Made by a program: the position numbers and the translations under genes. Shown piece by piece: positions 133-31,922 of a stretch of DNA of 32,000 nucleotides (its first letter is position 1; every line of letters begins with the position of its first letter). The DNA is taken from NCBI RefSeq assembly GCF_000709555.1, contig NZ_CP006873.1:30001-62000 (forward strand), given 5' to 3'. This DNA is from Candidatus Saccharimonadota bacterium. GTDB lineage: Bacteria; Bacteroidota; Bacteroidia; Flavobacteriales; Blattabacteriaceae. The notes under the pieces were generated by a model, which was given only the letters and a program-made list of their open reading frames with translations, did no database searches and was not told the origin of the DNA.

Positions 133-289
133 TAAATAAAAAAAAGACGGCGTTTGGAAGTCTTCAATACCTTCACCTACCTACTTTTTATAATCGACAA
201 AGGAATTTTGGATCTATAAATGGCTGTCTTAAGAGTAGCCTGCTACTAGGAGACCCCCGGATTGACATTCATTGACTTTTGTAACCCTC
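133..289 (-). pseudogene. ftsY: ftsY (SRP receptor) C-terminal remnant; most of the gene is deleted
   Basis: Minus-strand fragments read ..VTKVNECQSGGLLVAGYS* (264-229) and ..SFVDYKK*VGEGIEDFQ (to 154). They match the FtsY C-terminus LTKLDGTAKGG...IP-KYIGVGEGIEDLQ, but lie in different frames and carry in-frame stops. The position downstream of rpmB-rpmG-DUF4295 fits flavobacterial synteny. About 250 N-terminal codons are absent. Confidence 0.6.
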
Positions 290-448
290 TCATTTAGTGG
301 AAAAAAAATCATTTATTTTATTATCTGGAACTATTTTTTCTTCAAAAACATAAGTTCTTGATTTGATTGACTTTATCATACGTATAACTTTTGTCATTTT
401 TTTAGATCCATTATTTTGGAACCCCGGGGGTTTTTTTGTTTTTGCCAT
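290..448 (-). CDS. Small DUF4295-family protein (52 aa), typically encoded after rpmG in Bacteroidota
   Basis: The ORF is below the track threshold. It reads MAKTKKPPGFQNNGSKKMTKVIRMIKSIKSRTYVFEEKIVPDNKINDFFSTK*, which resembles the DUF4295 pattern MAKK...K-TKxIKMVKSxKSGxYxFxExI. It starts 1 bp after the rpmG stop. Confidence 0.7.
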   Translation of the reverse strand: MAKTKKPPGFQNNGSKKMTKVIRMIKSIKSRTYVFEEKIVPDNKINDFFSTK

Positions 449-449
449 T

Positions 450-632
450 TTATTTAATTTCTTTATGAATAGTGTATTTTCTTAGAATAGAGTTATATTT
501 TCTTAATTCTATTCTATTAGGCGTATTTTTTTTATTTTTGGTACTAAAATAACGAGATATCCCTTTTTTTCCACTTTTCTTATGTTCAGTACACTCCAGA
601 ATTATTTGTATTCTATTTCCTTTTTTTCCCAT
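450..632 (-). CDS. rpmG: 50S ribosomal protein L33
   Basis: 60 aa, [21 protein letters not shown]...[10 protein letters not shown]. Typical L33 sequence, adjacent to rpmB. Confidence 0.95.
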
Positions 633-640
633 TTTTGATT

Positions 641-877
641 TTATTTTATTAGTCTTTTTTTCCTCGAACGTTTCAGTGCCTCTTCAATTCCTATAGTATT
701 CACAGTTCTAATTCCAGCTGCAGAGATTTTTAACAAAATCCATCTATTTTCTTTAGGAAGAAAGAATCTTTTTTTTATCAGATTAATATTAAAACGACGT
801 TTAATTTTATTATTAGCATGAGAAACTTTGTTCCCTATTAGAACTTTTTTCCCGGTTATTTGACAAATTTTTGACAT
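641..877 (-). CDS. rpmB: 50S ribosomal protein L28
   Basis: 78 aa, [33 protein letters not shown]. Canonical L28 N-terminus. Confidence 0.95.
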
Positions 878-948
878 TTGAAAGAGGTTTTTTATTTCGG
901 ATTATTTAAATAACAGCTGCATAAGCTTTTTAATGAATAAATTCCATT

Positions 949-2568
949 ATGCAAGATCAAAAAATAGATTATTATTTACTTATAGGGACTATAATTTCAA
1001 TCTTAATAGTCTTTTTTTGTTTAAAAAAGCCTTTCAATGAAATTGGGTCGAAAAATATACAGTTATCAAATAATATTAATAAAACTATTTTATTCTCTCC
1101 CAAGAAATATGGGGAAACGATTTTAGAAAATGATCTTATTAGGGTAAAAATATCTAATCTTGGTGGGAATATTAGTGAGATCTTTCTAAAGAAGTATAAG
1201 ACTTATAACGATAAAATCTTACGTTTAGTAAAGACGAAAAGTTTCACTTTTGGTCTAAATCTTATAACTCTTTCGGGAAAAAAAGTTGATAGTAATGATT
1301 GGTTATTTACCCCTAATCTGCAAGAAACTCCCTATCAATACATCTTAACTATGAAAACAATTTTTCCTCCCGGAGGTGAATTAAATTATATTTATTCATT
1401 ACCGAAAGAAAAATCATATGAGGTAAATTTTTCCATTACTAGTCGAGGTCTTTGTTCTTTCGCAATAAATAATGCTATTTTTTTTAATTGTAAACAGAAA
1501 TTAATTGGGTTGGAAAAAAATTACAGTTATGAAAATAATTATGCACAAATGTGTTATTCTTATGGAAAGAATAAAAAAATAAAATCTTTAAGTGAAATAA
1601 GACCAGATCAAAATATAGTAAAAAAAATAAATTGGATAGCTAATAAACAACAATTTTTTACAACTATATTTTTTCCTAAAAATACTTTTCAAACAACGAA
1701 AATTCAATCAAAAAGACTTACATCACCATTTTATATTAAATGGGGTTCTATGTTTTCTCCATTAGAATTAGTTGATAATGAACTTAATTGGAAGGCAAAG
1801 TGGGATTTTGTTCCATTAAAGTATAATCTTCTTAAGAAGTATGGGGATAATTTTGAAGATATTATCCCATTTGGGTGGAGGATTTTTAGATCTATTAATA
1901 AAAACTTTTTTTTAAAACTTTTACAATTTTTAGAAAAAACAAAGTTGAATTATGGAGTAATTATTATATTAATGACTATTATAGTCAAACTTATATTATT
2001 CCCCATTACTTATTGGCAATGTAAATTCATTGCTATAATGAAAATGAGACGTTCTGATATAGAAGAACTGAATGAAAAACTGAAAGATGCAGATCCTTTC
2101 CAAAAGCAACAAGCTACTATAGAATTTTATAAACAAATAGGAATAAATCCAATGTCTGTATTTTTCCCAGCAATTTTCCAAATACCAATTTTTTATGCAC
2201 TGTTTAAATTTTTTCCAAATATTATTAATCTTCGAGGAAAATCATTTCTTTGGGCTTATGATTTAACTTATTACGATTCAGTATTTCATCTTCCTTTGAC
2301 TATACCGATTTATGGAAATCATGTTAGTTTATTTACTTTATTTTATATATTTGCGTTTATATTGTATACAAAGTTTAGTCATATAAATAATTACGGAAAT
2401 AATAATCGGCTTCTGAAATATTTCATGCCAATAATAATGCTTTTATTTATTAATAATTATGCTTCCGGACTTTCATTATATTATTTTATATCAAATATTT
2501 TGAATCTTATTATTCTGTTTCTAATTAAGAAAAAAAAAATAACAAAATATATATTGCGTAATAATTAG
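949..2568 (+). CDS. yidC: Membrane protein insertase YidC
   Basis: 539 aa with an N-terminal TM, a large periplasmic domain and a C-terminal multi-TM 60 kDa-IMP core (..PITYWQ...MKMRRSDIEELNEK...GINPMS..FPAIFQIPIFYALF). It has a short basic tail and an A10 run at 2530-2539 near the 3' end. Confidence 0.9.
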   Translation: MQDQKIDYYLLIGTIISILIVFFCLKKPFNEIGSKNIQLSNNINKTILFSPKKYGETILENDLIRVKISNLGGNISEIFLKKYKTYNDKILRLVKTKSFTFGLNLITLSGKKVDSNDWLFTPNLQETPYQYILTMKTIFPPGGELNYIYSLPKEKSYEVNFSITSRGLCSFAINNAIFFNCKQKLIGLEKNYSYENNYAQMCYSYGKNKKIKSLSEIRPDQNIVKKINWIANKQQFFTTIFFPKNTFQTTKIQSKRLTSPFYIKWGSMFSPLELVDNELNWKAKWDFVPLKYNLLKKYGDNFEDIIPFGWRIFRSINKNFFLKLLQFLEKTKLNYGVIIILMTIIVKLILFPITYWQCKFIAIMKMRRSDIEELNEKLKDADPFQKQQATIEFYKQIGINPMSVFFPAIFQIPIFYALFKFFPNIINLRGKSFLWAYDLTYYDSVFHLPLTIPIYGNHVSLFTLFYIFAFILYTKFSHINNYGNNNRLLKYFMPIIMLLFINNYASGLSLYYFISNILNLIILFLIKKKKITKYILRNN

Positions 2569-2593
2569 GCGTAATAATTAAGGGAATAATATT

Positions 2594-4528
2594 ATGAATC
2601 AAAACAATAAACCCAATAAACCCAATAAACCCAATAAACCCAATAAACCCAATAAACCCAATAAACCCAATAAACTTAATAACCCCAATAACCCCACAGA
2701 TTTGTTTTTTATATCATGTTTCCTGATTATTTTGGGAATATTTATTTTTCAATCTTTTGTCTTTAAAAGACAACAGATTTCTCAAGATTTTTTTTTTCAA
2801 ATCCTTTCTGAAAAAAGAGTTCATAAAATAATTATAACAAATCACTCTAAAGCCAGAATATGGGTTTATAAAACAAATATAAAAAATATAAAAAATCAAA
2901 AAGATCTTTTATATCCGTATTTTGATCATTATGAATTAACTATAAATAATTTTACTTTTTTTTCTCAAAAGATTGAAGAATATAAATATCTCTATAAATT
3001 AAATCTCATTCTTCTTTCAACGAATCAAAACGAATCTAATTTGAGCAAAACTGTCATTGAATCCGGATTATTTTTTTTCCTCTTTGTCATATTCTGGGGA
3101 TTCATATTATCTCGTCTAAACGGAGGTTATGGAAAACATATATTTAATATTGGAAAGTCTAAAGCTAAACTTTTTGACGAAACCGATAATGTTAAAATTA
3201 CTTTCCGAGACGTCGCTGGGTTGGAAGGAGCAAAGGAAGAAATCCAAGAAATTGTTGACTTTCTAAAAAATCCGAATAAATATACTAATTTAGGTGGGAA
3301 AATTCCTAAAGGTGCGCTATTAGTGGGACCTCCAGGAACTGGTAAAACTCTTTTAGCTAAAGCTGTTGCCGGAGAAGCTAAAGTCCCGTTCTTTTCTCTT
3401 TCGGGATCTGATTTCGTAGAAATGTTTGTTGGAGTAGGTGCTTCTCGCGTCAGAGATCTTTTTAACCAAGCTAAGGAAAAATCTCCTTCCATTATTTTTA
3501 TTGATGAAATCGATGCTATAGGACGTTCTAGGGTAACAAATAATATTAATGGAGCTAATGAAGAACGTGAAAATACCCTGAATCAGCTACTAACGGAAAT
3601 GGATGGTTTTGATACCAATACTAATGTTATAGTGATGTCAGCCACCAACCGTTCAGAGATTCTTGATCAGGCACTTTTACGTCCTGGACGTTTTGATAGG
3701 ACTATTTTTATAGATCTTCCAGAACTAAATGAAAGAAAAGAAATTTTTTTAGTACATATTCAAAAATTAAAAATTGCAGCAGATATAGATATTGAATTTT
3801 TATCTCGTCAAACTTCTGGGTTTAGTGGTGCTGATATAGCGAATATATGTAATGAATCTGCTATTATAGCAGCTAGGAAAAACAAATCAAAAATAGAATA
3901 TCAAGATTTTTTAAGTGCTATAGATAGAATTATTGGAGGATTTGAAAAGAAAAATAAAGTAATAAAGTTAGCAGAAAAAGAAAGAATAGCTTATCATGAA
4001 GCTGGGCATGCTGCTATTAGTTGGTTAATTGAACATGCGGCTCCTCTGGTAAAAGTTACTATTGTTCCTAGGGGAAAATCTTTAGGAGCCGCTTGGTATC
4101 TTCCAGAAGAACGTCAATTAACTACTTTTGAACAGATGCAAGATGAAATTTGTGCCATGTTAGGAGGACGGGCAGCTGAACAAGTAATATTGAAAACGAT
4201 TTCGACAGGTGCTTTAAACGATTTAGAACGTGTAACTAAACAAGCACAATCTATGGTAACAATTTTTGGATTAAATAAACGTATTGGGAATATTTCTTAT
4301 TATGACTCTACAGTTCAAACCGAATATGCAAAACCCTATAGTGAAAATACTGCCAGAATTATTGATGAAGAAATTTCTAAAATTATTGAAGAACAATATC
4401 AACGGGCATATAAATTATTAGCTAATAATCGTGTCAAACTTCAACAATTAGCTCAGAAATTACTTGAGAAAGAAGTGATCTTTAAAGAAGATCTTGAGGA
4501 AATTTTTGGAAACAGACCTTTTCCATAA
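2594..4528 (+). CDS. ftsH: ATP-dependent zinc metalloprotease FtsH
   Basis: 644 aa. It shows Walker [14 protein letters not shown], Walker [10 protein letters not shown], the SRH region and the zinc motif HEAGHA. The N-terminus carries an (NKP)n repeat. Confidence 0.97.
2606..2695 (+). repeat. In-frame tandem 9-bp repeat (AATAAACCC) x7 perfect plus 3 degenerate copies, encoding (NKP)7-NKL-NNP-NNP in the FtsH N-terminus
   Basis: Read directly: aataaaccc repeated from 2606 to 2668, then aataaactt aataacccc aataacccc. Confidence 0.95.
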
Positions 4529-4533
4529 AAAAT

Positions 4534-6423
4534 TTATTTAACTTCTTCAAAATCTACATCTTGAACATTTTCATTTTGACTCTTAGTATTAGATGCGTAA
4601 GTATTTTTTACGCTATTTTTTTTAGCAGTATACAATTCTTGTGAAATACTGGTCCAAATCTCGGTTAAAATTTTTGTCGTCCTGTCTATTTCAGAGAAAT
4701 TTTTTGAAGCACGAGCATTTTTCAGCTGTTGTAAAATCTCTTCGATTTTTTTCTTATTCTCTTTTGAGAATTTGTTTTCGGATTCTTTAATCTGTTTTTC
4801 AGTTTGAAAAATTAATCCATCCGTAGCATTTAACTTATCAATTTCTTCTTTATATTTTCTGTCTTTATCAGCATTTTCTTGGGCTTCTCGTTTCATTTTT
4901 TCAATTTCTTCTTGACTTAATCCTGAAGAAGCTTCAATCCGAATTGATTGTTCTCTATTAGTACCTTTATCTTTAGCTGAAACGTTTAAAATCCCATTGG
5001 CATCAATATCAAAAGTTACTTCGATTTGAGGTATTCCTCTAGGAGCTGGTGGTATATTAATTAAATCGAAACGGCCAATTTCTTTATTATCTTTGAAAAG
5101 AGATCGTTCACCTTGTCCTACTCGAATAGTTACAGCTGGTTGATTGTCAGAAGCCGTAGAAAATGTTTCTGATTTTTTTGTTGGGATAGTTGTATTAGAT
5201 TCTATTAATTTAGTAAATATTCCCCCTAAAGTTTCTATACCTAAAGAAAGTGGGGTAACATCCAGTAGAAGCACATCTTTAATATCTCCAACAAGAACTC
5301 CACCTTGAATAGCTGCGCCTATAGCTACAACTTCGTCAGGATTAACACCTTTTGAAGGTTTTTTTCCAAATAATTTTTCTACTGAAGCTTGAATTTTTGG
5401 AATTCGTGTAGAACCACCTACTAAAATGACTTCATCAATATCTTTAATTGCATCTAATCCAGCGGATTCTAATGCTTTTTTGCAAGGTTCCATTGAACGA
5501 CGAATAAGACCATCTGAAAGTTGTTCAAATTGAGCTCTAGTAATAGTTTGGACTAAATGTTTTGGTCCAGAAGAAGTAGCGGTAATATAAGGTAAATTAA
5601 TTTCAGTTTTTAGTCCTGAGGAAAGTTCTATTTTTGCTTTTTCAGCTGCTTCTTTTAAACGTTGATGAGCCATAGGATCTTGTCGAAGGTCAATACCTTC
5701 TTGAGATTGGAAACTCTTTACCAAGAAATTAATAATAATATCGTCAAAATCATCTCCTCCTAAATTGGTATCCCCATTTGTAGAAAGTACTTCAAATACG
5801 CCATCACCTAATTCTAGAATAGAAATATCGAAAGTACCTCCTCCTAAATCATATACTGCGATTTTTTTATCATGTTTCTTTTTATCTAAGCCGTAAGCTA
5901 ATGCTGCTGCAGTAGGTTCATTAATTATGCGTTCTACTTTCAATCCTGCAATTTCTCCAGATTCTTTAGTAGCTTGTCTTTGTGAATCATTAAAATATGC
6001 AGGGACCGTGATAACGGCACGAGTCACTTTCTGTCCAAGATAATCTTCAGCAGTTTTCTTCATTTTTTGTAAAATCATTGCTGAAATTTCTTGTGGAGTA
6101 TAAATTTTTTTATCTATATCGACTCTTGGAGTATTATTAGGACCTTGTATAACCTTATATGGCACCCGATTTATTTCAGTAGAAATCTCCGAAAATTTTG
6201 TTCCCATAAACCGTTTTATTGAAAAAATCGTTTTTTTAGAATTAGTAACAGCTTGTCTTTTAGCTGGATCTCCTATTTTTATTTCTCCTTCTTCAACAAA
6301 GGCTACCATAGATGGAGTAGTTCTTTTTCCTTCAGAATTAGGAATTACTATAGGATCATTACCTTCCATTACAGCAACACAGGAATTGGTTGTTCCTAAA
6401 TCGATACCAATAATTTTATTCAT
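4534..6423 (-). CDS. dnaK: Molecular chaperone DnaK (Hsp70)
   Basis: 629 aa, [21 protein letters not shown]...[12 protein letters not shown]...[14 protein letters not shown]. Full-length Hsp70. It is convergent with ftsH with only 5 bp between the stops. Confidence 0.98.
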
Positions 6424-6495
6424 TTTGGAAAATTTTTAAAAATAGAAAACAAGCATTGTGCCATTAATTTGGGTTTTATCTTATTGTGTGTTTAT

Positions 6496-6514: not shown

Positions 6515-6625
6515 TGACTTTATGTCATTTATCATATTTTGGTGTTTAATTTTGTTAATTAAAACGAAAATGCTATATATACTCATGCTTTTCTTTGTAA
6601 ACAATGATTTTATTTTTAATATACT

Positions 6626-9097: not shown

Positions 9098-9670
9098 ATG
9101 TTGTCCCATGAACTCTCTCTAATTAAAGAAAGTGCTCAATTGGTTTCCAAAACATTAGGAATGTTAACTTCAGAAATCCAACCAGAGGAATTTATTCGGG
9201 ATCATGGCGGTATTCCAGCTTTTCTAGGACTTTATAATTTTCCCAATACATTATGCTCCAAATGAACAAATAGTTCATGGGATTCCCAATAAAAAACCTT
9301 TATCTGAAGGAGATATTGTGTCTATAGATTGTGGGGTCCTAATGAATGGATATTATGGGTATCATGCTTATACTTTTGCAGTAGGTGAAATATCTGAAGA
9401 CCGAAAAAAACTCATAGAGGTTACTAAAAATTCTCTATCCCGTGGGATATATTCTTGTCGAATAGGGAATAGGACAGGAGAAATTGGATATGCCGAAAAA
9501 ATCTACATGATCTGGGAAAAAATTATTAGAAGGAATGGTCCTAGCTATTGAACCTCAGATAATTAAAAAAGATGTACCGCAGATAATAAGCCTTCAGTTC
9601 ATTTTGAACATAATGTAGCCTAAATGGAAACCCAATTTTACTTTCTACATATAAATTTATATATCAAACG
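9098..9670 (+). pseudogene. map: Methionine aminopeptidase (type I) pseudogene with multiple frameshifts and internal deletions
   Basis: Frame a (9098-9259) reads MLSHELSLIKESAQLVSKTLGMLTSEIQPEEFIRDHGGIPAFLGLYNFPNTLCSK*. Frame b reads PNEQIVHGIPNKKPLSEGDIVSIDCGVLMNGYYGYHAYTFAVGEISEDRKKLIEVTK..GEIGYA, followed by a collapsed middle. Later frames read LEGMVLAIEPQII, ADNKPSVHFEHNVA* and NGNPILLSTYKFIYQ. All are MAP motifs but they sit in at least 4 frames. The track ORF 9318..9551 is one fragment. Confidence 0.85.
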
Positions 9671-10187: not shown

Positions 10188-10664
10188 ATGAAAAAAGGAA
10201 ACCTGAAAAAAAGATCTTTATTACCTGATCCAAAATTTAACGACCCTTTAGTTAGTCGTTTTGTTAATAATTTAATGAAAAATGGGAAGAAAAATCTCGC
10301 ATATAATATATTTTATGGTGCGATGAAAATTGTAAAAGAACGGAATGAAAATAAAGATAAAAATGAGCTCGAAATTTGGAAACAAGCACTGACCAATATT
10401 ATGCCTCATGTAGAAGTTAGGAGTAGGAGAGTAGGAGGATCTACTTTTCAGATTCCGAGACAAATTAGTCCATATAGAAAAATATCAATAGCTATGAAAT
10501 GGCTTATCTGTTACTCACGAAAAAGAAATGAAAAAAGTATGTCTGATAATCTTGCAGCAGAAATTATTGCCGCATCTAAGGAAGAAGGATTAGCCGTAAA
10601 GAAACGTATTGATACTCATAAAATGGCCGAATCTAATAAAGCTTTCTCACATTTTAGGTTCTAA
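10188..10664 (+). CDS. rpsG: 30S ribosomal protein S7
   Basis: 158 aa, ..[28 protein letters not shown]...[16 protein letters not shown]... Confidence 0.96.
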
Positions 10665-14322: not shown

Positions 14323-14595
14323 ATGGATTTGTTAAAGCCAATTCTTACTGAAAAAACTAGTGCTGCTGTTAAGTTGCACAATGTTTACGTTTTTTTAGTA
14401 AATATCCGTCATAATAAATCTGATATAAAAAAAATAATTGAAAATAGATATTCTGTATCTGTAAAAAATGTCCGGATTATAGTGTGTGCACCTAAACGGT
14501 TTAAATCTAAAAAAATTAAAAAAGCTCTCGTAGAATTTAAAAAAGGACAATCGATAGATTTTTCTAATCTCGATTGTTATCATAATATTCAGTAA
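14323..14595 (+). CDS. rplW: 50S ribosomal protein L23 (short, 90 aa)
   Basis: [13 protein letters not shown]...[18 protein letters not shown]...[15 protein letters not shown]. Position between rplD and rplB. The hairpin-loop region looks shorter than in the homologues I remember. Confidence 0.9.
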
Positions 14596-17211: not shown

Positions 17212-17320
17212 ATGAAAGCATCTGAAATAAGAAATGAGGAAAAAAATTTTAATAATCAAATTAAGAATTACTAGAAAAATTAGAGCTAGGAGGAAAAAAA
17301 AGACAGAAAATTTGTTATGA
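17212..17320 (+). pseudogene. rpmC: 50S ribosomal protein L29 relic (internally deleted and frame-split)
   Basis: Only 107 bp separate rplP and rpsQ, where rpmC (about 190 bp) normally sits. The ATG at 17212 gives MKASEIRNEEKNFNNQIKNY* (stop at 17272-17274); MKxSEIR is an L29-like N-terminus. A second frame (from 17234/17267) reads ..[17 protein letters not shown] and ends in an ATGA overlap with rpsQ, resembling the L29 C-terminus IRxxRRxIARIKTxLNE. The best-case product is about 36 aa versus about 63 aa. Confidence 0.65.
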
Positions 17321-21089: not shown

Positions 21090-21483
21090 ACGTCTTGGTA
21101 GAGGGCAAGCTTCTGGAAAAGGAGGAACTTCAACACGAGGACATAAAGGAGCAAAATCACGTTCAGGAAATTCTACTAAATTTGGATTTGAAGGTGGTCA
21201 AATGCCTCTACAGCGCCGGATCCCTAAATTTGGATTTAAAAATATTCATCGGAAATGTTATGTTGGTATTAATATAGATGTCTTACAAAATTTAGTAGAT
21301 AAGGGAAAAATTAAAACCGAAGTGAATCCAATAATTTTACAAAAACTCGGTTTAGTATCTAAAAATAAATTAGTCAAAATATTGGGTCGTGGAAAATTAA
21401 CATCTCAAATAAATTTTTCAGCTTTAAAATTTAGCAAAAGTGCTCTAAAAGCAATACAAAAGGTTGGAGGGAAAATTTTTTAG
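21067..21483 (+). CDS. rplO: 50S ribosomal protein L15 (N-terminally short)
   Basis: 138 aa, ..KRLGRGQASGKGGTSTRGHKGAKSRSG.....FEGGQMPLQRRIPKFGF. Confidence 0.94.
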   Translation: MKFVKNCKRLGRGQASGKGGTSTRGHKGAKSRSGNSTKFGFEGGQMPLQRRIPKFGFKNIHRKCYVGINIDVLQNLVDKGKIKTEVNPIILQKLGLVSKNKLVKILGRGKLTSQINFSALKFSKSALKAIQKVGGKIF

Positions 21484-22841
21484 TCCTCTAAAAAATCTTT
21501 GGAAAGTAGAAGAATTGCGTCACAGAATTATTGTTACGATTTTTTTTTTTATTAGTCTACCGTTTAGGATCTTATGTTCCTTTAGTAGGAATTAATTCGA
21601 GAGAGATAGGTGACTTTATAGAAAATCTGAATCCAAGTACCAAGAACATTATGCAGGTTCTTTCTTCATTTACTGGCGGTGCTTTTACCCATGCTTCAGT
21701 CTTAGCTCTTGGAATCATGCCTTATATCTCAGCCTCTATTGTTATCCAACTTATGGAAATTCTTTTTCCATCTCTAAAAAGAGAAGGGAGAAAAAAAATT
21801 AATTATCTTACTAAATGGCTGACTATAGGTCTTTGCCTTATTCAGGCCCCAGCATATATTGCAGCACTTACTACTCAATTCTTACCATTTTCTGATATTC
21901 CTAAAGCTTATCTATTAGATATAACAAGTTCCCAGGGAAAATTGTTTTTCTGGTTAATGTCTATTTTATTACTTACTACAGGAACATTATTTTCTATGTG
22001 GCTTGGAGAAAATATTTCCAATAAAGGAATTGGAAATGGGATTTCATTAATTATTATGATAGGTATCATAGTACGTTTTCCAGAATCCATAGTTATGGAA
22101 ATCCTAAATAGAATGGAAGTAGGTCACGTTGGTCTATTTTTATTATTTTTTGAATTTATAATTTGGTTTTTTATAATACTATTTTGTATATTTGTTATAC
22201 AATCCGTGAGAAAAATTCCTCTTCAATATGTCAAATATATCCAAGCAAAATATATTCAAAATTATTATTTTTCAATAAAACCGTCAATTCGACAATATAT
22301 TCCGTTAAGTGTTCTAACGGTAGGAGTTATGCCTATTATATTGGCCCATGCCATTATGTTATTGCCAGTAATTTTATTTACTCATATTAGAAATGAAGAA
22401 TTCAAACAAATTGTAGAAATTTTCCAAGATCTTTATGGAGTTTGGTATAATATAGTATTTGTTTTTCTTATCATATCCTTTACATTTTTTTATACCACAA
22501 TTACTATTCCTGTAAATAAAATGGCGGATGATCTTAAAACAAATGGAGCATATATTCCAGGCGTCAACCCAGGTCAGGACACGATTGATTATATAGATAA
22601 TATTTTGGATCAAATAACTTTTTTAGGAGCGATTTTACTTGCAATAATTGCCGTATTGCCCGCTATTGTGGTAAGAATAGGAGTTACTAAGGGATTTTCT
22701 TTATTTTACGGAGGTACATCATTATTAATTATTATAGGAGTAGTACTAGACATATCTCAACAAATAAACGCTTATTTGCTTAATATTCATTATGACGGAA
22801 TGATGCAAGGAAAAAGATCTCTGATAACAAAAAATAAATAA
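21464..22841 (+). CDS. secY: Preprotein translocase subunit SecY; the 5' end is frame-split at a T11 homopolymer (intact only if read as T10, or if translation starts at TTG 21531)
   Basis: The body is 21531..22841 (436 aa, ..[15 protein letters not shown]...[14 protein letters not shown]...). The conserved N-terminus [17 protein letters not shown] is encoded at 21488-21538 in a different frame, which opens after the stop at 21446-21448 with only TTG 21464 as a start candidate. The two frames meet at the T11 run 21540-21550. Confidence 0.9.
21540..21550 (+). repeat. T11 homopolymer at the secY frame junction
   Basis: Counted directly: the t at 21540 plus tttttttttt at 21541-21550. Confidence 0.95.
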
Positions 22842-23958: not shown

Positions 23959-23979
23959 TTTAAAAAAAAAAAAATAATT

Positions 23980-24600: not shown

Positions 24601-24602
24601 AG

Positions 24603-25562: not shown

Positions 25563-25568
25563 TTCAAT

Positions 25569-26072
25569 ATGAGGACGATATCTTATACTATGGAAGGTCA
25601 ATATGAACCCATAGAATTACGTTATGGAGGTCCACTGGGAAAAGAAGTGTTCAGAGAAAATGTGAATAGAATACTTTCTCAAGAACTGATTGGCGATAAG
25701 GCATTGCTAGGAATTTCTTTAGCTAAAGTATTAGTCGGGTTTCACGCTTGGACTCTACCCATGCTCCTCAATGGACATCAAGAATTAGCAGGTGATGAGG
25801 TAGCTTCTCAAGATGCATTATTACAAGCTGCTGAAGAACATTTTAAAGGAAGCGAAGGGATGCAACTGAAAGATATTACTTATTTATGCGAAAATTCTCA
25901 CTCTATTGAAGACGTAATGGATCAATTAGTAGGGTACGCGAATTCGATGTGCGTATCCACGACGATTATCTCTCATAGTGAAACCGCTGTAGAACGTATG
26001 GCCAATAATAAACTTTTGCGAATTGAAGCTGCCTCTCAATGGAAAGCTTTCTACTCACCCTATTTACGATGA
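25569..26072 (+). pseudogene. eno: Enolase-derived relic ORF (167 codons, stop-free, about 60% of eno deleted)
   Basis: Collinear enolase motifs all lie in one frame. EGQYEPIELRYGG..GKEV..NVN..I..ELIG corresponds to STGxxEAxELRDGG..GKGV. ALLGISLAK corresponds to ANAILGVSLA. LAGDE corresponds to AVGDEGG. KDIT matches directly. HSIEDVMDQ corresponds to SIEDGLxExDW. TTIISHSETAVE corresponds to [32 protein letters not shown] corresponds to RxAKYNQLLRIEExLGxxAxY. The ORF starts 6 nt after the rpoA stop and ends in an ATGA overlap with rplQ. The regions around the VGDDL metal ligand and the catalytic Lys are missing. Confidence 0.8.
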
Positions 26073-26449
26073 TACACAGAAAAAAGATAAATCATCTTGG
26101 GAGAACGTCATCACATCGAAAAGCTATGTTGTCGAATATGGCCTGTTCTCTTATTCTTAAAAAAAGAATAAGTACCACTTTAGCTAAGGCGAAAGCATTA
26201 CAACGTTTTATAGAGCCTCTTCTTACCAAGAGCAAAACATCTAGTACACATTCTAGACGCATAGTATTTTCATATTTACAAAATAAGTCCGCTGTTGTAG
26301 ATATTTTTCTTACAGTGGCTCCTCAAATATTAGAGCGTCCTGGAGGTTATACCAGAATTATTAAAACTGGATTTCGATTGGGTGACGGTTCAGAAATGGC
26401 ACTAATAGAATTAGTGGATTTTAACCCATGGTATACTAAAAAAAAATAA
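26069..26449 (+). CDS. rplQ: 50S ribosomal protein L17
   Basis: The track ORF begins at 26039 inside the eno relic. The ATG at 26069 gives [49 protein letters not shown], matching the L17 N-terminus MRHxKKxNHLxRxxxHRKAML. Confidence 0.95.
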
Positions 26450-26455
26450 TAGTAA

Positions 26456-26635
26456 GTGTTCAAGCATTTGGGATCGCTAGCTGGGGTTCTCATAATCGCG
26501 TACACGGGAAGTTATGCTATACAATATTCCGTCCTCACAGATTTCTCTATAAGCCTAGGACGAAAATCTAGGATAAAAAGGCTCTTTGAAAATCACTACG
26601 AGGTGAGAAATAGCCGCATCTGCAAATTAATTTAA
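26456..26635 (+). pseudogene. Possible gene remnant, tentatively carA-like (carbamoyl-phosphate synthase small subunit N-terminal region)
   Basis: A 59-codon GTG-initiated open frame in a visibly GC-richer spacer reads VFKHLGSLAGVLIIAYTGSYAIQYSVLTDFSISLGRKS... There is a loose match to CarA G.AFGEV.FNTGMTGYQE.LTDPSY.GQ. As I recall, carA follows rplQ in many Flavobacteriia. The similarity is weak. Confidence 0.3.
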
Positions 26636-26661
26636 TCGATAAATTTTCTTTACAAAGCATT

Positions 26662-29301
26662 ATGGAAATATTAACTCGTTACAAACCTCAAAATATTGAG
26701 AAACAAATATATAATTTTTGGCTTCAAAAAGATTTTTTTCATTCGATTCCTGATGAAAGGCCTTCTTATACTGTGGTAATTCCTCCACCAAATATTACTG
26801 GTATACTTCATATGGGGCACATGTTGAATAACACGTTCCAAGATGTACTTGTCCGTCGTTCTCGGATGATAGGTTACAATACGTGTTGGGTTCCAGGAAC
26901 AGATCATGCTTCCATAGCCACTGAGGCTAAAATAGTATCTCATCTCAAAGAAAAAAAACTGACGAAATCAAAAATCGGTCGAGAAGCTTTTCTAAAATTA
27001 GCTTGGGAGTGGACTCATAAACATAGAGAGACCATATTGAATCAACTTAAAAAGCTTGGATGCTCTTGTAATTGGAAATATACAAGATTTACCATGGAGA
27101 AATCGCTATCAAATTCTGTTATTCGTTGTTTTATTGATTTATATAGACGCGGATTGATTTATAGGGAATACAGAATGGTAAATTGGGATACTGAGGCGAA
27201 AACCACTATATCAGATGAAGAGGTAATATATAAAGAATGTAAAGGAAGACTTTATTATGTAAAGTATCCTATTTTAGGTAAAAAAGAATATTTAATTATT
27301 GCCACTACTCGTCCAGAAACCTTGTTGGGTGATACGGCTGTTTGTGTTCATCCATCTGATGACCGTTTCTCCCATCTAAAAATTGGAGAAAGTATTTTGG
27401 TTCCCATTATTCAACGTATAGTACCACTTATAAAGGATGAATATGTGGATAAAGAATTTGGAAGCGGCTGTCTTAAAATGACTCCTTCTCACGACGTTAA
27501 TGACCAAATTTTAGCTAAAAAATATCATCTAGAATTTATAGATATTCTTAATGAGGATGGGACTTTAAATGAACATGCTTTCCACTATCATGGAAAAGAC
27601 CGTTTTCACGTGCGTAAAGAGATTGTCCAAGAACTAAGAGAAAAGGGTTTTTTGATCAAAGAAGAGTCCTTAATCCATAAGGTCGGCGTCTCTGAACGTA
27701 CTGGATCTTTGATAGAATCTCGTCGTTCCATGCAATGGTTTCTAAAAACAAAAGATATGGCTAAACAAGCGATTGAAGCTGTAAAAAATGGAGAAATTCA
27801 CTTTCATACCCAAAAAATAGAAAATATTTATAAAAATTGGATGGAAAATATCCAAGATTGGAACATTTCACGTCAACTTTGGTGGGGACACCGAATTCCA
27901 GTGTATTATTATAATAATAATATAGAAGATTATATAGTGGCTGAAACTAAGGAGGAGGCTCTGAATCTAGCTCGGAAAAAAATAAATTGTGAAAAAATAA
28001 CATTGGATATGTTCAACCAAGACGAAGATGTGCTTGATACTTGGTTTTCTTCTTGGCTATGGCCAATTTCTGTATTTGATGGCATATCTAGCCCAAATAA
28101 TAAAAGTATTCAATATTATTATCCAACTAAAGATTTAGTCACTGGACCTGATATTCTATTTTTTTGGGTAGCACGTATGATTATGGCTGGTTATACTTTT
28201 ATAAATAAAAAACCATTTGAGAACGTTTGTTTTACTGGGGTTGTTCGTGATAATCATCACAAAAAAATGTCTAAGTCTTTAGGAAATTCTCCTAATCCTA
28301 TTACCTTGATGAATCAATATGGGACAGATGGAGTAAGAGTAGGACTATTGCTTAATAGTAAAATGGGTAATGATCTTATTTTTAATGAAAAACTTTGTTT
28401 ACAAGGAAGAAATTTTGCGAATAAAATATGGAATGCTTTCCGGTTGATCAAATCTTGGAAAACTGATTTTAATGCACCTATTTTAACTTATGAAAAGTTA
28501 GCTATAAAGTGGTTTGAAAACCGATTTTATCAGGTACTTGAACAAATAGACAAGTTATTTGAAAAATATAAAATTTCTGACACGTTAAATATCCTGTATA
28601 ATTTTTTTTGGGATGATTTTTGTTCTTGGTATTTAGAAATTGTCAAACCCTCTTCAAAAGATTCTGTGTCAGATTTTCTATATTCAAAAACATTTCAATT
28701 TTTTGAAAATTTGATGAAATTGCTTCATCCATTTATACCATTTCTTACCGAAGAAATTTGGCAACAAATTAAAGTCCGTGCAGACAAAGAAGCACTTATT
28801 ATTAGTTCATGGCCTAAAAAAAAACAAATGGAGGAAAAAATAATAAAAGATTTTTGTAAGATTATGCATCTTGTAATAGAGTTACGATCCTTAAGAAAAA
28901 GGCAGAGAATTTCTTCAAATATTTCATTTTTGTTGTCCACTTGTATTAATAATGAAAAATCTATATTCTATCCCGTGGTTTTAAAATTAGAAAATATTTC
29001 TGAGCTTTCTTTTCTGGAAGAGAAACCTATTAATAACAAATTATCTTTTTTAGTTGGTACACAAGAATACTTTGTGTCTTTTGAAGGACAAACTAATCTC
29101 TATGAGGAGATTCAAAAATTAAAAAAATCTATAGAATACTATAAAGATTTTCTAGCATATACAAGGGAAAAATTGTCAAATAAGCATTTTGTATCTAATG
29201 CTCCTCAAAGAGTAGTTAATTTAGAAATGAAAAAAGAATATGAGACCATAAACAAAATCAAAATGCTACAAGATAGACTTAAAATTATACTCGAAAAGTA
29301 A
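26662..29301 (+). CDS. valS: Valine--tRNA ligase
   Basis: 879 aa. Class I HIGH motif PPPNITGILHMGH, KMSKS motif KMSKSLGN, a CP1 editing domain and a C-terminal coiled coil. Confidence 0.97.
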   Translation: MEILTRYKPQNIEKQIYNFWLQKDFFHSIPDERPSYTVVIPPPNITGILHMGHMLNNTFQDVLVRRSRMIGYNTCWVPGTDHASIATEAKIVSHLKEKKLTKSKIGREAFLKLAWEWTHKHRETILNQLKKLGCSCNWKYTRFTMEKSLSNSVIRCFIDLYRRGLIYREYRMVNWDTEAKTTISDEEVIYKECKGRLYYVKYPILGKKEYLIIATTRPETLLGDTAVCVHPSDDRFSHLKIGESILVPIIQRIVPLIKDEYVDKEFGSGCLKMTPSHDVNDQILAKKYHLEFIDILNEDGTLNEHAFHYHGKDRFHVRKEIVQELREKGFLIKEESLIHKVGVSERTGSLIESRRSMQWFLKTKDMAKQAIEAVKNGEIHFHTQKIENIYKNWMENIQDWNISRQLWWGHRIPVYYYNNNIEDYIVAETKEEALNLARKKINCEKITLDMFNQDEDVLDTWFSSWLWPISVFDGISSPNNKSIQYYYPTKDLVTGPDILFFWVARMIMAGYTFINKKPFENVCFTGVVRDNHHKKMSKSLGNSPNPITLMNQYGTDGVRVGLLLNSKMGNDLIFNEKLCLQGRNFANKIWNAFRLIKSWKTDFNAPILTYEKLAIKWFENRFYQVLEQIDKLFEKYKISDTLNILYNFFWDDFCSWYLEIVKPSSKDSVSDFLYSKTFQFFENLMKLLHPFIPFLTEEIWQQIKVRADKEALIISSWPKKKQMEEKIIKDFCKIMHLVIELRSLRKRQRISSNISFLLSTCINNEKSIFYPVVLKLENISELSFLEEKPINNKLSFLVGTQEYFVSFEGQTNLYEEIQKLKKSIEYYKDFLAYTREKLSNKHFVSNAPQRVVNLEMKKEYETINKIKMLQDRLKIILEK

Positions 29302-29362
29302 AAGTACGATCAGTTGATGTTTTCTTTAAATATATATTCATTAAATATAAAATCGGTTTTGA

Positions 29363-31132
29363 GTGAAAAGTACGTTGGAACGGCTAATTCCTGTTCTATA
29401 TGAAGCTGTTACTCATGTAACAGGTATTAAAAATACTTTAAGTCTTGTAATTCAGTATACCAAAAAAGAATTTCCTGGATATATTACTTTAGTTCTTTTA
29501 CCTTTAATGAAAATATTAAAGCAATCTCCTGAAAAAATGGGAAATCAAATAGGAAAATATGTTAAGAAACATTCCCAAATAATTCAATCTTTTCGATATA
29601 TTAATGGTTTTTTGAACTTTGAATGTACTGATTCATATTATAATGAGTTATTAAAAGAACTTTCTAGTAGTAACTTTTTGACAACTACATCTTCAGATAA
29701 GAAGACTCTGATGATAGAATATTCTTCCCCCAATACTAATAAACCTTTACATCTTGGTCATATTAGGAATATGGTATTAGGTCATTCAATATCTGAACTT
29801 TTTAAATCTGTAGGAAAAAAGGTAATAAAAATACAGATTCTCAATGATCGTGGAATACATATTTGTAAATCTATGCTGGCTTGGAACAAATTCTCCGGAG
29901 GAGAAACTCCTGAAAACAGTGGTATGAAAGGTGATCATTTAGTCGGAAAATATTATGTCTGCTTTGAAAAGGCTTATAGGAAGGAAGTGAATGATTTATG
30001 TGCACAAGGTTTTGATGAAAAGAAAGCTAAGAAGGAAGCCCCAATTATGCAAGAAGTTCATCAACTGTTGCGTCTTTGGGAATCTGGAGATGAAAAAATT
30101 TTGGCTTTATGGAAAAAAATGAATAACTGGGTATACCAAGGGTTTAAAAAAACCTATAGACAATTAGATATTAATTTTGACTATACTCAGTATGAGAGTA
30201 ATACTTACTTATTAGGGAAAAGAGTTATTGAAGAAGGAATAAAAAAAAAGGTCTTCTTTTATAAAGAAGACGGTTCAGTCTGGGTAGATCTTACTAAGGA
30301 GGGTCTAGATGAAAAGTTGCTTTTGCGTGCAAATGGAACAGCGGTGTACCTTACACAAGATCTTGGAACAACTATAGAACGTTTTGAAAAATATCCTATA
30401 GATTCTCTTATATTTCTCGTTGGAGAAGAACAAAAGTATCATTTTCGTGCGCTTTTTATCATCCTAAAGAAACTCGGATATGTCTGGGCAGATAAGCTTT
30501 TCCATCTTTCATATGGCATGGTAGAACTCCCTTCAGGCAAAATGAAGTCTAGAGAAGGCATTGTAGTAGATGCAGATGATCTGTTGGAACAGATGAACCA
30601 AGTGGCTAAAAAAATTACAAAAGAACTAGGAAAAGTCCATGATTATTCATCTACTGACTTAAAAACTCTAAGTTTAGGCGCATTGAAATACCATCTCCTA
30701 AAAGTCGATCCTAAAAAACGTATTATGTTTAATCCTGAAACTTCAGTAGATTTTAAAGGAAATACAGGGACTTACATCCAGTATACCTATTCTCGTATTC
30801 GCTCTTTAGAGAGAAAGGCTATGGCGATAGCATCGAAAAATATTCACCCGTATTCTCCAAGTGAAGAGGAAAAATATTTATTAAAAATCCTAGAACAATA
30901 CCCTTCTTTAGTGAAAAGTTCTGCGGAAAATTTTAGTCCAGCTATATTGGCTAATTACATTTATGAACTAGCTAAATCTTTTAACGATTTTTACCAAAAC
31001 GTCAGTGTAAAAATTATTCAAGATAAAAATCTGGATCAGGCTATTTTCCGACTAAAACTTTCTATTTTGTGTGGAGAAGTTTTAAAATTAGGCCTGAAAC
31101 TTTTGGGAATCAATATGCCAGAACGTATGTAG
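29363..31132 (+). CDS. argS: Arginine--tRNA ligase (GTG start)
   Basis: 589 aa, ..IEYSSPNTNKPLHLGHIRN..LG......LSYGMV.L..GKMKSREG..V.....ALKYHLLK and a C-terminal DALR anticodon-binding domain ending ..NMPERM. Confidence 0.95.
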   Translation: MKSTLERLIPVLYEAVTHVTGIKNTLSLVIQYTKKEFPGYITLVLLPLMKILKQSPEKMGNQIGKYVKKHSQIIQSFRYINGFLNFECTDSYYNELLKELSSSNFLTTTSSDKKTLMIEYSSPNTNKPLHLGHIRNMVLGHSISELFKSVGKKVIKIQILNDRGIHICKSMLAWNKFSGGETPENSGMKGDHLVGKYYVCFEKAYRKEVNDLCAQGFDEKKAKKEAPIMQEVHQLLRLWESGDEKILALWKKMNNWVYQGFKKTYRQLDINFDYTQYESNTYLLGKRVIEEGIKKKVFFYKEDGSVWVDLTKEGLDEKLLLRANGTAVYLTQDLGTTIERFEKYPIDSLIFLVGEEQKYHFRALFIILKKLGYVWADKLFHLSYGMVELPSGKMKSREGIVVDADDLLEQMNQVAKKITKELGKVHDYSSTDLKTLSLGALKYHLLKVDPKKRIMFNPETSVDFKGNTGTYIQYTYSRIRSLERKAMAIASKNIHPYSPSEEEKYLLKILEQYPSLVKSSAENFSPAILANYIYELAKSFNDFYQNVSVKIIQDKNLDQAIFRLKLSILCGEVLKLGLKLLGINMPERM

Positions 31133-31135
31133 TCT

Positions 31136-31922
31136 ATGTTTGATATCCCGTCAAGGAAGTATTGAGTAAGATTTCAGAACCCATAAAAGAATTACGTCGT
31201 GTTTTACTTAATGCTGATGTGAATTTGAAAGTAGCTAAAAAAGTTCTAATAAAGATTGTACACAGTGAACTCGTAGAACTTCTGGGTCTACCAGGTAAAA
31301 CAACTTTTTCCGTCAAATTAGCTTCTTACTTGTCCAGTAAAGAACGGAAAAATCCTTTATTAGTATCTGTTGATATTTCACGACCTGCAGCAATAGAACA
31401 ACTTAAAAAATCATATGCGAGAGTTAAGTGTAATGATGTATTAATAATAGATCACGCAGGACGTATAGATGAAGCTCTGATGAATGAAATCAAATATCTT
31501 TATCAAGAAAGATGTCGAGACTCTTTTTGTAGACAGGACAAGATTCAGTGAATCCCGCACCACGATATTTTAAATTATGAAGGCGGACAAACTAGATGGA
31601 GCACTAACTATTCGAAGTGTTGGACCCATTAAATTCATAAGCACTGGTGAAAATATGAGTATTACGAGTTTCTGCAACAACTAAAAAAAATACCAGGATG
31701 AAAGAATTTTCCTTTAAAATCATTGAGGCTATTATCTATTCTCTGACTCCTAAAGAACGGAAACATCCTAATATTATCAATCGAAAAAACCGAATCGCTA
31801 GTGAGTCTGTAACCTCTGAAGAAAAATTTCTACTTAAGCAATTAGAACATATGAGAAAATTAATAAATCCTTCGATAAAAAATATAATCACTACTATTTT
31901 TTCTGTAATATCTGATCTATGA
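31136..31922 (+). pseudogene. ffh: Signal recognition particle protein Ffh (SRP54) pseudogene, frameshifted and heavily deleted
   Basis: The ATG at 31136 gives MFDIPSRKY* (the Ffh N-terminus is MFDNLS). Later fragments are in other frames: IKELRRVLLNADVNLKVAKK (N domain); GLPGKTTFSVKLASYL...PLLVSVDISRPAAIEQL (the P-loop GLQGSGKTT shortened by 2 residues); VLIIDHAGRIDEALMNEIK (DTAGR changed to DHAGR); DKLDGALTIRSVGPIKFISTGENM (DARGG is lost from TKLDGDARGGAALS..PIKFxGxGE); and IIEAIIYSLTPKERKHPNIIN.KNRIASESV (M domain). The whole is about 790 bp versus about 1.3 kb intact. Track ORFs 31162..31551 and 31698..31922 are fragments of it. Confidence 0.88.

Follow-up and report, generated by a model that had tools for sequence, protein, structure and literature searches.

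The remnants of ffh, ftsY, map and rpmC found in one stretch of the genome of Candidatus Walczuchella monophlebidarum LLAX are probably the product of a decay of envelope, secretion and energy genes under relaxed selection and strong deletion bias, and the published interpretation is this same general erosion. The stretch analysed (hereafter the window, 32,000 nt) is part of the published genome (309,299 bp) of this flavobacterial symbiont of the giant scale Llaveia axin, a host that also carries an enterobacterial symbiont. The erosion itself has already been reported (Choi et al. 2025; Galperin et al. 2021), and the case is an ordinary and largely explained one; the unreported detail of the window is a deletion in the hairpin loop of ribosomal protein uL23.

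Seven Walczuchella genomes have been published (Rosas-Perez et al. 2014, PMC3971599; Choi et al. 2025, PMC12188211, bioRxiv 10.1101/2024.10.23.619753, Table S2), that of LLAX in 2014 as a hybrid assembly of 454 and Illumina reads. The window has 95-96% nucleotide identity to the Walczuchella of Icerya purchasi (ICPU). Published Walczuchella papers already give ffh and map as pseudogenes and rpmC as absent in LLAX (PMC12188211), but do not mention the ftsY remnant, the secY T11 frameshift, the uL23 hairpin deletion or the independent timing of map loss. A wider survey found that Uzinura and W. monophlebidarum lack a single ribosomal protein gene, rpmC (Galperin et al. 2021).

Ffh and FtsY had been called dead in the first-pass annotation, and the following features bear this out:

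31171..31922, plus strand: ffh remnant (tblastn with P0012, Pfam and PDB matches)
31171-31509, plus strand: ffh piece 1, parts of the N and G domains
31589-31657, plus strand: ffh piece 2, end of the G domain
31686-31922, plus strand: ffh piece 3, C-terminal half of the M domain, with an open ORF at 31698-31922
151..285, minus strand: ftsY remnant, from the last third of the FtsY G domain, ~45 codons interrupted by 3 in-frame stops
290-448, minus strand: DUF4295, intact (Pfam E = 2.9e-13)
450-632, minus strand: rpmG, intact ORF
641-877, minus strand: rpmB, intact ORF

Only 196 of the 447 residues of the intact flavobacterial Ffh P0012 can be aligned by tblastn, in three pieces and three frames. 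Pfam matches are restricted to partial SRP54_N, SRP54 and SRP_SPB domains, the P-loop is truncated (GLPGKT vs GLQGSGKT), and the greater part of the M domain has been lost; L161 ffh has a mutated Walker A lysine (GSGQT). A DNA alignment of three lineages revealed ffh deletions common to the window, L161 and L163, together with private ones in each lineage, and the shared deletions identify ffh as an ancestral pseudogene. Indeed, ffh is a pseudogene or absent in all seven published genomes, and ftsY is unlisted there (Choi et al., PMC12188211).

Of ftsY, approx. 85% has been deleted. The remnant lies directly downstream of DUF4295, so that the DUF4295-rpmG-rpmB block (290..877, minus strand) serves as its synteny anchor: a ~320-aa FtsY is found at the same position in 31 metagenomic Bacteroidota contigs, with the order rpmB-rpmG-DUF4295-ftsY conserved. 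PDB and Pfam searches alone left the remnant (151-285) undetected. A profile of the 31 FtsY C-termini aligns the segments VTKVNECQSGG...VGEGIEDFQ of the remnant with 6.7 bits. Two of 1000 shuffles scored as high, as against none of the 158 other window pieces of 200 nt. The LLAX window accordingly encodes no functional Ffh and, at the syntenic locus, no functional FtsY, of which the published gene table lists no second copy, a pattern that fits the SRP-less state. In the window plus 54 kb of sister loci (86 kb of Walczuchella sequence in all), no Rfam family scored above threshold and no SRP RNA was found; ffs is not listed in the published tables either. The SRP was dead before the sampled Walczuchella lineages split. 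Ffh and FtsY being mutually dependent, either gene became useless after loss of the other; the SRP pathway was the first to fail, and small deletions have pared both genes down since.

Map and L29, also listed as dead or damaged in the first reading of the window, are represented by shorter remains:

9119..9620, plus strand: map remnant (six-frame reading; Pfam Peptidase_M24)
9119-9262, 9261-9500, 9514-9585 and 9579-9620, plus strand: map pieces, in three frames
17212..17316, plus strand: rpmC remnant flanked by rplP and rpsQ, ~30 codons interrupted by 3 stops

The Peptidase_M24 match is limited to profile positions 34-136 of 208, and the map pieces cover 177 of the 266 residues of Uzinura Map, with at least 8 deletions private to the window lineage. 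In L166 map is complete save for one TAA, and it is shredded differently in LLAX and in ICPU; since this stop is the only lesion of the L166 gene, map died independently in LLAX, ICPU and L166. It was lost at least three times, long after ffh had died. The rpmC remnant reads MKASEIRNEEKNFNNQIKNY*KN*S*EEKK. Relative to the intact rpmC of ICPU (62 codons), the window has four internal deletions, three of them common to L161. The gene is intact in four of the seven Walczuchella genomes without working ffh, and absent in exactly the three of seven that keep tig, an anti-correlation (PMC12188211). No rpmC is present between rplP and rpsQ in Uzinura or in Sulcia PSPU. L29 loss appears to be a recurrent, low-cost event in tiny flavobacterial symbionts and not a consequence of SRP loss.

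The protein-conducting channel gene carries a lesion of another kind:

21464..22841, plus strand: secY, +1 frameshift in a T11 run (21540-21550), otherwise full length

Removal of one T yields a full-length SecY of 458 aa, with 89% identity to ICPU SecY and 49% to Galbibacter SecY over the full length. The frame-splitting homopolymer noted previously is real, as one extra T, and secY is not eroding in LLAX: dN/dS relative to ICPU is 0.46, and the window contains 0 private secY indels, where the neutral rate taken from ffh and map (~1 per 100 nt) predicts ~14 (Poisson P ~1e-6). The LLAX gene is still under selection. The T11 run is common to L161 and L166 (T10 in ICPU), and in these two assemblies secY is broken, the same frameshift having been followed by real gene decay. 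LLAX secY has the features of a slippage case, its frameshift lying within an A/T tract of 9 bases or more while the rest of the ORF is intact and maintained by selection. The gene is presumably expressed in one of two ways, by transcriptional slippage within the T tract or by initiation at an in-frame TTG (21531) situated 9 nt before it, a possible start that would give a protein minus its first 22 residues. In the published Walczuchella papers secY is treated as intact, and the poly-A/T cases named are carB, trpC and mnmE only.

One might also ask whether the pseudogenes and the secY frameshift are errors of the 2014 assembly. It combines 454 with Illumina reads, homopolymer errors are frequent in 454 sequencing, and secY is damaged by one base only, within a T11 run. 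Such an origin is scarcely credible, however: ffh, map and rpmC carry many multi-base deletions, several of the deletions recur in the independent assemblies L161, L163, L166 and L001, and T11 is found again in two Logan assemblies built from different sequencing runs, L161 and L166.

The ribosomal tunnel itself has been altered in this genus:

14323..14595, plus strand: rplW (uL23), intact ORF, 90 aa

We compared this protein with uL23 of Uzinura, Sulcia, E. coli and F. johnsoniae (7JIL_T) and with 71 Bacteroidota. The short hairpin that the first-pass annotation had suspected was confirmed, at a size of 11 and not about 8 missing residues. Relative to F. johnsoniae uL23 and 69 other non-Walczuchella Bacteroidota, the 11 hairpin residues, including the intratunnel tip, are missing between F60 and K61 (codons 60/61, nt 14500-14505). 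The gap spans the equivalents of E. coli V67-G75, and the hairpin, with its tip at about E. coli G71, is not full length. Among the 71 Bacteroidota aligned, the loop deletion occurs only in Walczuchella, and 69/69 outside the genus keep the loop; ICPU, P0004 and P0005 share the deletion, and the nearest outgroup, P0006, has a full loop. The deletion appears to be a derived trait of the whole genus. None of the 30 proteins compared in the region has a larger internal deletion, and the pairwise dN/dS of rplW vs ICPU (0.61) is the highest in the set. Family membership is supported by a PDB match to 7JIL_T (E = 6e-9), by PF00276 recorded for close homologues, and by a Foldseek probability of 1.00 to uL23 chains for the predicted structure (moderate confidence, pLDDT 69), which has TM-scores of ~0.65-0.72 to archaeal uL23 and to 7ZQ5 chain t, and equally to bacterial uL23.

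SRP and SecA probe the tunnel exactly at the site of this deletion, and neither its position nor its size would be expected from general erosion. The loss of SRP, which uses the loop, may have permitted the deletion, within what is a single lineage. The stronger proposal, that SRP loss took away the main user of this intratunnel "nascent-chain sensor" loop and so allowed it to be deleted, is a tentative one, and we consider it rather doubtful. If it is true, Walczuchella would be a naturally occurring bacterium whose uL23 is loop-less in the archaeal manner, and one subclade would also be without uL29; it would constitute a natural experiment in which a bacterial tunnel exit co-evolves with targeting factors. 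E. coli uL23 E18 is a surface position that crosslinks to SecA and the docking residue of trigger factor; its equivalent is conserved in the window (TEK). After normalisation for the usual variability of each protein, uL23, uL22, uL4 and uL24 are no more diverged than other ribosomal proteins, and the divergence ratios of tunnel proteins are much alike in Uzinura and Sulcia.

The earlier proposals that yidC is intact and that SRP-dependent targeting has been abandoned both agree with what was found:

949..2568, plus strand: yidC, intact, 539 aa

Both YidC domains are matched end to end in Pfam (60KD_IMP 1-163 of 163; YidC_periplas 4-281 of 283). With ffh and ftsY dead, SecY, SecA, YidC and LepB survive in LLAX alongside polytopic membrane proteins (Choi et al. 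Table S2, PMC12188211), so that membrane insertion is presumably SRP-independent, through SecYEG/YidC. LLAX alone has an intact yidC, which in the six other genomes is a pseudogene or missing (Choi et al., PMC12188211), and no other genome has yidC and lepB both intact (PMC12188211). NrfD, a PsrB-like protein, DUF3341, NDH-2 and a cbb3-related protein are likewise intact only in LLAX (PMC12188211). Membrane clients and insertion machinery are retained or lost together across Walczuchella genomes.

Could the lost functions have been replaced from outside? Choi et al. (PMC12188211) put the loss of envelope, trafficking and energy genes down to host complementation in general terms, and L. axin has its enterobacterial symbiont, so that SRP, Map and uL29 might be imported from host or co-symbiont, a matter of complementation and not of dispensability. 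We regard this as very unlikely. Neither the window nor the related loci offer any evidence that bears on import; an imported SRP would also need an SRP RNA, and none was seen in the 86 kb of Walczuchella sequence; and from several free-standing precedents it is known that cells can do without SRP, without L29 or without the uL23 loop, each taken singly.

The central proposal of the first-pass annotation was that SRP, FtsY, Map, uL29 and the uL23 loop form one unit, dismantled jointly when the cell abandoned co-translational handling of nascent chains. All four dead window genes do act at or near the emerging chain, uL23 is minus the loop tip that SRP and SecA contact inside the tunnel, and loop deletion and dead ffh coincide in every sampled Walczuchella lineage. 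The gene set named there may also be enriched in losses (4/11 dead vs 31/287 elsewhere), with a one-sided P = 0.03 that is post hoc. Nevertheless, the losses neither co-occur across lineages nor share a timing, and a single coordinated loss is improbable. Not all ribosome-docking factors (SRP, trigger factor, deformylase, Map) are gone: tig and def are intact in LLAX according to the published annotation table (PMC12188211), def has omega = 0.13 across the seven genomes (PMC12188211), and it is intact, at 161-166 aa, in L161 and L163. The rpmC/tig anti-correlation, the retention of rpmC in four genomes without working ffh, and the repeated, late loss of map point in the same direction. So do the relatives, Uzinura lacking L29 but keeping map intact and the uL23 loop full, and Sulcia PSPU keeping the loop (3 residues shorter), with Sulcia DMIN devoid of SRP. 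The conserved E18 equivalent and the lack of excess substitution in tunnel-lining proteins also argue against such a unit.

The decay is, furthermore, not confined to the tunnel exit. The notion that the pseudogenes are not a random set holds in that Walczuchella pseudogenes are skewed to COG categories M (envelope), U (secretion) and C (energy) (Choi et al. 2025, PMC12188211); it fails as regards specificity, given that the Tat pathway, LepB, FtsH, envelope genes and respiration decay in sister genomes (PMC12188211). Some large-subunit ribosomal protein genes are also eroding in the genus (PMC12188211). Neither is the window otherwise intact, as had been supposed:

1..132, minus strand: 5' end of a gene running off the window, probably tatC, with the ORF start at 132

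This ORF reads MYPNPVLKPTPEIILPTDRLMEYFSSNEKMPFMEHLEELRKHVF, and its HLEELR motif, typical of TatC N-termini, makes tatC the probable identity; its 44 aa gave no match in Pfam. tatC is a pseudogene in LLAX (Choi et al. Table S2, PMC12188211), and it falls outside the tunnel-exit set but within the eroding export machinery. The second departure is a ~500-bp insert with an orphan ORF in the rpoA-rplQ interval, whose product has 100% identity to an NCBI protein of Ca. W. monophlebidarum. It is conceivable, though doubtful, that both this ORF and the ffh C-terminal ORF are open only as translational-coupling bridges, to rplQ and thrS, respectively.

After the SRP, further genes failed in one lineage or another, map and rpmC in LLAX and secA, secY, yidC, lepB, tat, tig and ftsH in sister genomes. 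In the published table, losses of secA, secY, yidC, lepB, tatC and tig form a patchwork (PMC12188211). LLAX is the least eroded of the genus, with SecA, YidC, LepB, trigger factor and deformylase listed as intact, plus residual polytopic respiratory proteins.

Most elements of this picture have counterparts elsewhere. The SRP-less state is already known: Sulcia muelleri DMIN, Carsonella, Hodgkinia, Tremblaya, Zinderia and Blochmannia vafer likewise have no functional Ffh (Matelska et al. 2016, PMC4779614). In Sulcia DMIN, Carsonella and others, however, the SRP genes are gone without trace, whereas the remnants in Walczuchella are still readable. Streptococcus mutans resembles the window genome in that membrane proteins can be made with SecY and YidC and without Ffh or FtsY, but it has a dedicated second YidC paralogue. 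The latter bears a long basic tail that binds ribosomes. The single YidC of the window ends in a short, basic tail, KKKKITKYILRNN. Sulcia PSPU misses L29 at the same rplP-rpsQ junction as the window and still has an intact SecY (446 aa).

For secY, the nearest parallels are the endosymbiont poly(A)/poly(T) slippage cases (Tamas et al. 2008; Wernegreen et al. 2010; both cited in PMC3971599). It shares with them a frameshift of one base within a tract of 9 T or more, in an essential gene that is otherwise intact, and conservation of the frameshift across lineages. It differs from them in that rescue is putative, a second route via the in-frame TTG is available, and the gene has decayed in two sister lineages.

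As to uL23, the hairpin of Sulcia is near full-length, 3 residues shorter, whereas Walczuchella has lost 11. In archaea and eukaryotes, the space vacated by the loop is filled by eL39. The fold of the window protein, with a shortened hairpin directed into the tunnel, is also that of archaeal and eukaryotic uL23 and of spinach chloroplast uL23c (Bieri et al. 2017, PMC5694952), and engineered E. coli delta-18 loop ribosomes (Knuepffer et al. 2019, PMC6692507; PDB 7ZQ5), with a truncated hairpin as well, could be isolated and their structure solved. Unlike this engineered truncation, that of Walczuchella is natural, and it affects a uL23 of the bacterial type.

The DNA of the window (G+C about 31%) contains the S10-spc-alpha ribosomal protein gene cluster, flanked by yidC, ftsH, dnaK, valS and argS; the N-terminus of FtsH (approx. 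2600-2690, forward strand) carries a tandem peptide repeat. In a scan with one genome per species, by far the closest relative was the Walczuchella symbiont of Icerya purchasi (ICPU; L16 99% identical in amino acid sequence, DNA 95-96% identical over 20 kb), with Uzinura diaspidicola ASNER and Sulcia PSPU as the next relevant symbionts. Contigs of other Walczuchella lineages (L161/L162, L163/L164 and L166), 95-97% identical to the window, were reached via homologues of an orphan ORF and of uL23. Genome decay in this genus is documented: the seven Walczuchella genomes compared so far have 27-84 pseudogenes each, and gene loss is heaviest in envelope (M), trafficking/secretion (U) and energy (C) functions, with some large-subunit ribosomal protein genes also gone (Choi et al., MBE 2025, PMC12188211). 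For strain LLAX, the symbiont of the giant scale Llaveia axin from whose genome, published in 2014, the window derives, Table S2 of that work (bioRxiv 10.1101/2024.10.23.619753) gives ffh (two fragments), map and tatC as pseudogenes, rpmC as absent, and secA, secY, yidC, lepB, tig, def, rplW and several respiratory membrane proteins as intact, while ftsY occurs nowhere in it. The rpmC gene is the sole ribosomal protein gene missing in W. monophlebidarum, and the same holds for Uzinura (Galperin et al. 2021).

The dead genes of the window belong to this wider decay of genes for membranes, secretion and energy. Their best explanation, which we consider probable, is that genes for membrane-protein biogenesis decay stepwise and largely independently under relaxed selection in a heavily pseudogenised symbiont, SRP having been lost first and SecY and YidC probably still working in LLAX. 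The gene remnants are the following:

31171-31922, forward strand: ffh remnant, to which an intact flavobacterial Ffh (P0012, 447 aa) aligns as three pieces in three frames, 196/447 residues
151-285, reverse strand: ftsY remnant of about 45 codons with three stops, after the DUF4295 gene
9119-9620, forward strand: map remnant, pieces in three frames, 177/266 residues of Uzinura Map
17212-17316, forward strand: rpmC (L29) remnant of about 30 codons with three stops and four deletions relative to ICPU

Comparison with P0012 and searches of Pfam and PDB indicate that the window ffh has lost its first 26 residues, a segment that ends within the P-loop, some of the G domain, and about 80 M-domain residues. 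Several deletions in ffh are common to the window, L161 and L163, and ffh had thus died before these lineages diverged; each lineage also has further private deletions, and the Walker A lysine is mutated as well in L161. The C-terminal M-domain piece (31698-31922, forward strand) has kept its frame open over 74-76 codons in each of three lineages, across which the neighbouring part of ffh is gap-rich and only 76-83% identical. The TGA stop of this ORF overlaps the ATG of thrS (start at 31919), and the frame may have been retained to couple translation of thrS.

Generic searches miss the ftsY remnant. Nothing significant was found for it or for the rpmC remnant in PDB or Pfam, and tblastn with whole FtsY recovered only a match at VGEGIEDFQ with E = 8.9, so that detection required a profile made for the FtsY C-terminus and controlled with shuffled sequences. 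This profile aligns the remnant (VTK..GG...VGEGIEDFQ) at 6.7 bits. Among 1000 shuffles, 2 attain this score; among 158 other 200-nt segments of the window, none does. The position of the remnant is syntenic: an FtsY-like ORF lies downstream of rpmB in 31 of the 80 metagenomic Bacteroidota loci fetched around rpmB, and four of five inspected loci have a gene of about 320 aa immediately after rpmB-rpmG-DUF4295.

The history of map is different. In L166 (4595-5404; run SRR21677114) this gene is in one frame over 264/266 residues relative to Uzinura Map, interrupted by one TAA codon in place of the GAA of the window, and represents either a very recent pseudogene or a case of read-through or a sequencing issue. 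This near-complete copy, together with the different deletions that have shredded map in the window and in ICPU, indicates that the recent common ancestor still had a live map, which has since been lost independently at least three times. These parallel losses provide a direct estimate of the deletion rate in dead DNA: about one indel per 100 nt, counted from the divergence of the nearest lineage sampled.

For rpmC, an intact gene of 62 codons is found in ICPU at the place of the window remnant. Three deletions are common to the window and L161, with further private deletions in each, and represent one loss within the LLAX/L161 subclade. The rplP-rpsQ junction leaves no room for rpmC in Uzinura (L073, approx. 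10432-10460) or in Sulcia PSPU (L045, approx. 10417-10426). Together with the loss in the LLAX/L161 subclade, L29 loss has occurred in three separate lineages of flavobacterial symbionts and is a recurrent event in tiny symbionts of this kind. Another ribosomal protein gene, rpsJ of ICPU (L001, approx. 5990-6280), seems to be without a normal start, since the aligned start leads to 19 codons only and the long ORF opens at SAEKIVKSV.

The secY gene is split by a run of 11 T at 21540-21550, compared to 10 T in ICPU. Removal of one T yields a SecY of 458 aa, which can be aligned over its whole length to the SecY of ICPU (89% identity) and of Galbibacter (49%). A sequencing error is ruled out by the identical run in two independent assemblies (L161 and L166), which also indicates that the frameshift is not new. 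In these two lineages secY then suffered an 8-nt deletion and further damage, whereas the window has zero private indels. Over the same period, ffh and map of the window lineage gained roughly one private indel for every 100 nt; about 14 would be expected in secY if neutral (Poisson P ~1e-6), and its dN/dS relative to ICPU is 0.46, i.e. relaxed yet below 1. We conclude from these comparisons that secY is likely still functional in LLAX and protected by selection, and that its expression may rely on slippage along the T run or on an in-frame TTG at 21531, which would drop the first 22 residues only. The longest homopolymer of the window has 13 A (23962-23974) and lies in the rpsK-rpsD spacer; 11 further A/T runs of 9-11 bases are dispersed over the window, and among intact genes only the secY run disrupts the frame. 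In Uzinura, fragments only of secY are found between rplO and infA (L073, 14623-15546), matching Walczuchella residues 74-221 and 411-433, and SecY appears to be lost.

The first-pass annotation had taken ffh, ftsY, map and the L29 gene as dead or damaged, the secY frame as split and yidC as intact, and all of these readings stand; both domains of YidC are complete according to Pfam. It had also proposed that SRP-dependent targeting was abandoned in favour of reliance on SecY and YidC alone or on host factors. The narrower part holds, in that this genome has given up SRP and would still insert membrane proteins through SecY and YidC, as in Sulcia; reduced genomes devoid of SRP protein and SRP RNA alike include Sulcia DMIN (Matelska et al., PMC4779614). 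The broader part, i.e. that the factors acting at the ribosomal tunnel exit (SRP, FtsY, Map, uL29 and the uL23 loop) were dismantled as one coordinated unit, is unlikely. Dead genes are indeed enriched in the set named for this proposal (4/11, compared to 31/287 elsewhere; one-sided P = 0.03), a set chosen post hoc, but for LLAX, Table S2 of Choi et al. has intact genes for trigger factor and deformylase, two factors docking at the tunnel exit, and def is intact in L161 and L163. Nor do the losses track one another across related symbionts: the patterns of rpmC, ffh and map are discordant, with three different times of death. Among the seven Walczuchella genomes, rpmC is present in four that lack tig and absent from three that keep it, and it persists in four without a working ffh. 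Uzinura lacks L29, yet retains both map and the complete uL23 loop; L29 is gone in Sulcia PSPU too. Decay in sister genomes also reaches secA, secY, yidC, lepB, tat, ftsH and respiratory proteins. Membrane clients and insertion machinery are lost in the same genomes, and LLAX keeps both. This fits a loss of clients relaxing selection on the insertion machinery, a process broader than co-translational targeting. The pattern is striking in a single window and vanishes once sister genomes are aligned.

Faster substitution in tunnel-lining proteins was also considered. Identity to free-living orthologues is lowest for uL23, uL24, uL4 and uL22, but after normalisation by variability among free-living Bacteroidota their divergence ratios (1.30, 1.44, 1.45 and 1.61) compare with a typical value of about 1.3, Uzinura and Sulcia being about the same, and the idea was rejected.

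Stepwise, largely independent decay is a phenomenon already known for Walczuchella and other reduced symbionts. The small new details are the remnant of ftsY, the deletion in the uL23 loop, the secY frameshift common to several lineages and the repeated independent losses of map, of which the last three, i.e. a genus-wide natural deletion of an intratunnel loop, a real frameshift under selection and repeated losses of one gene, may be useful to those working on these symbionts.

One insert in the ribosomal cluster is absent from free-living flavobacteria, Uzinura and Sulcia:

25569-26072, forward strand: orphan ORF of 167 aa, filling an insert of about 500 bp between rpoA and rplQ

Its G+C content (0.39) differs from that of the window (0.31), and its product has a counterpart of 100% identity at NCBI, annotated as "hypothetical protein" of Candidatus Walczuchella monophlebidarum. 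It has no match in Pfam or Rfam, and its only homologues are ORFs of other Walczuchella lineages (69% and 50% identity). A hidden RNA gene (ffs or rnpB) in this GC-richer insert was rejected, as no Rfam match was obtained even at E up to 10. The dN/dS of the ORF is 0.8-1.6, all indels across three lineages are in frame, and the ORF is broken in ICPU. The ORF begins 7 nt past the stop codon of rpoA and runs into the start of rplQ, so translational coupling may be all that keeps it open.

The uL23 loop deletion is the one feature of the window without prior report. The shortening suspected in the first-pass annotation is real: compared with F. johnsoniae uL23 (7JIL chain T) and all 69 other non-Walczuchella Bacteroidota, 11 residues are missing between F60 and K61, the largest internal deletion among 30 proteins compared. 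It occurs in every Walczuchella uL23 found (the window, ICPU, and two further sequences, P0004 and P0005), while the nearest outgroup (P0006, 54% identical), whose contig also has an intact L29, features the full loop. The missing columns correspond in the alignment to E. coli V67-G75. Experiments in E. coli have linked this loop to tunnel scanning by SRP and SecA, ribosomes without 18 loop residues have been purified and used, and E18 is one surface position of uL23 that crosslinks to SecA (Knuepffer et al. 2019, PMC6692507). The equivalent glutamate is conserved in Walczuchella uL23 (TEK). This residue is also the docking site for trigger factor, and that it is conserved agrees with tig being retained. 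A causal link between the loop deletion and the loss of SRP is plausible, though it rests on one lineage.

In an AlphaFold model of the window uL23 (pLDDT 69, pTM 0.60), the fold is predicted to be kept, with an 11-residue connection in place of the hairpin. The model matches archaeal uL23, an engineered E. coli uL23 with truncated loop (7ZQ5) and normal bacterial uL23 to about the same degree. Unlike Walczuchella, Sulcia PSPU keeps the uL23 loop, 3 residues shorter, with SRP absence known for strain DMIN (PMC4779614), and Uzinura, with secY fragments only, keeps the full loop. In spinach chloroplasts, by contrast, the hairpin of uL23c is truncated too, and has been described with altered docking of SRP (Bieri et al. 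2017, PMC5694952).
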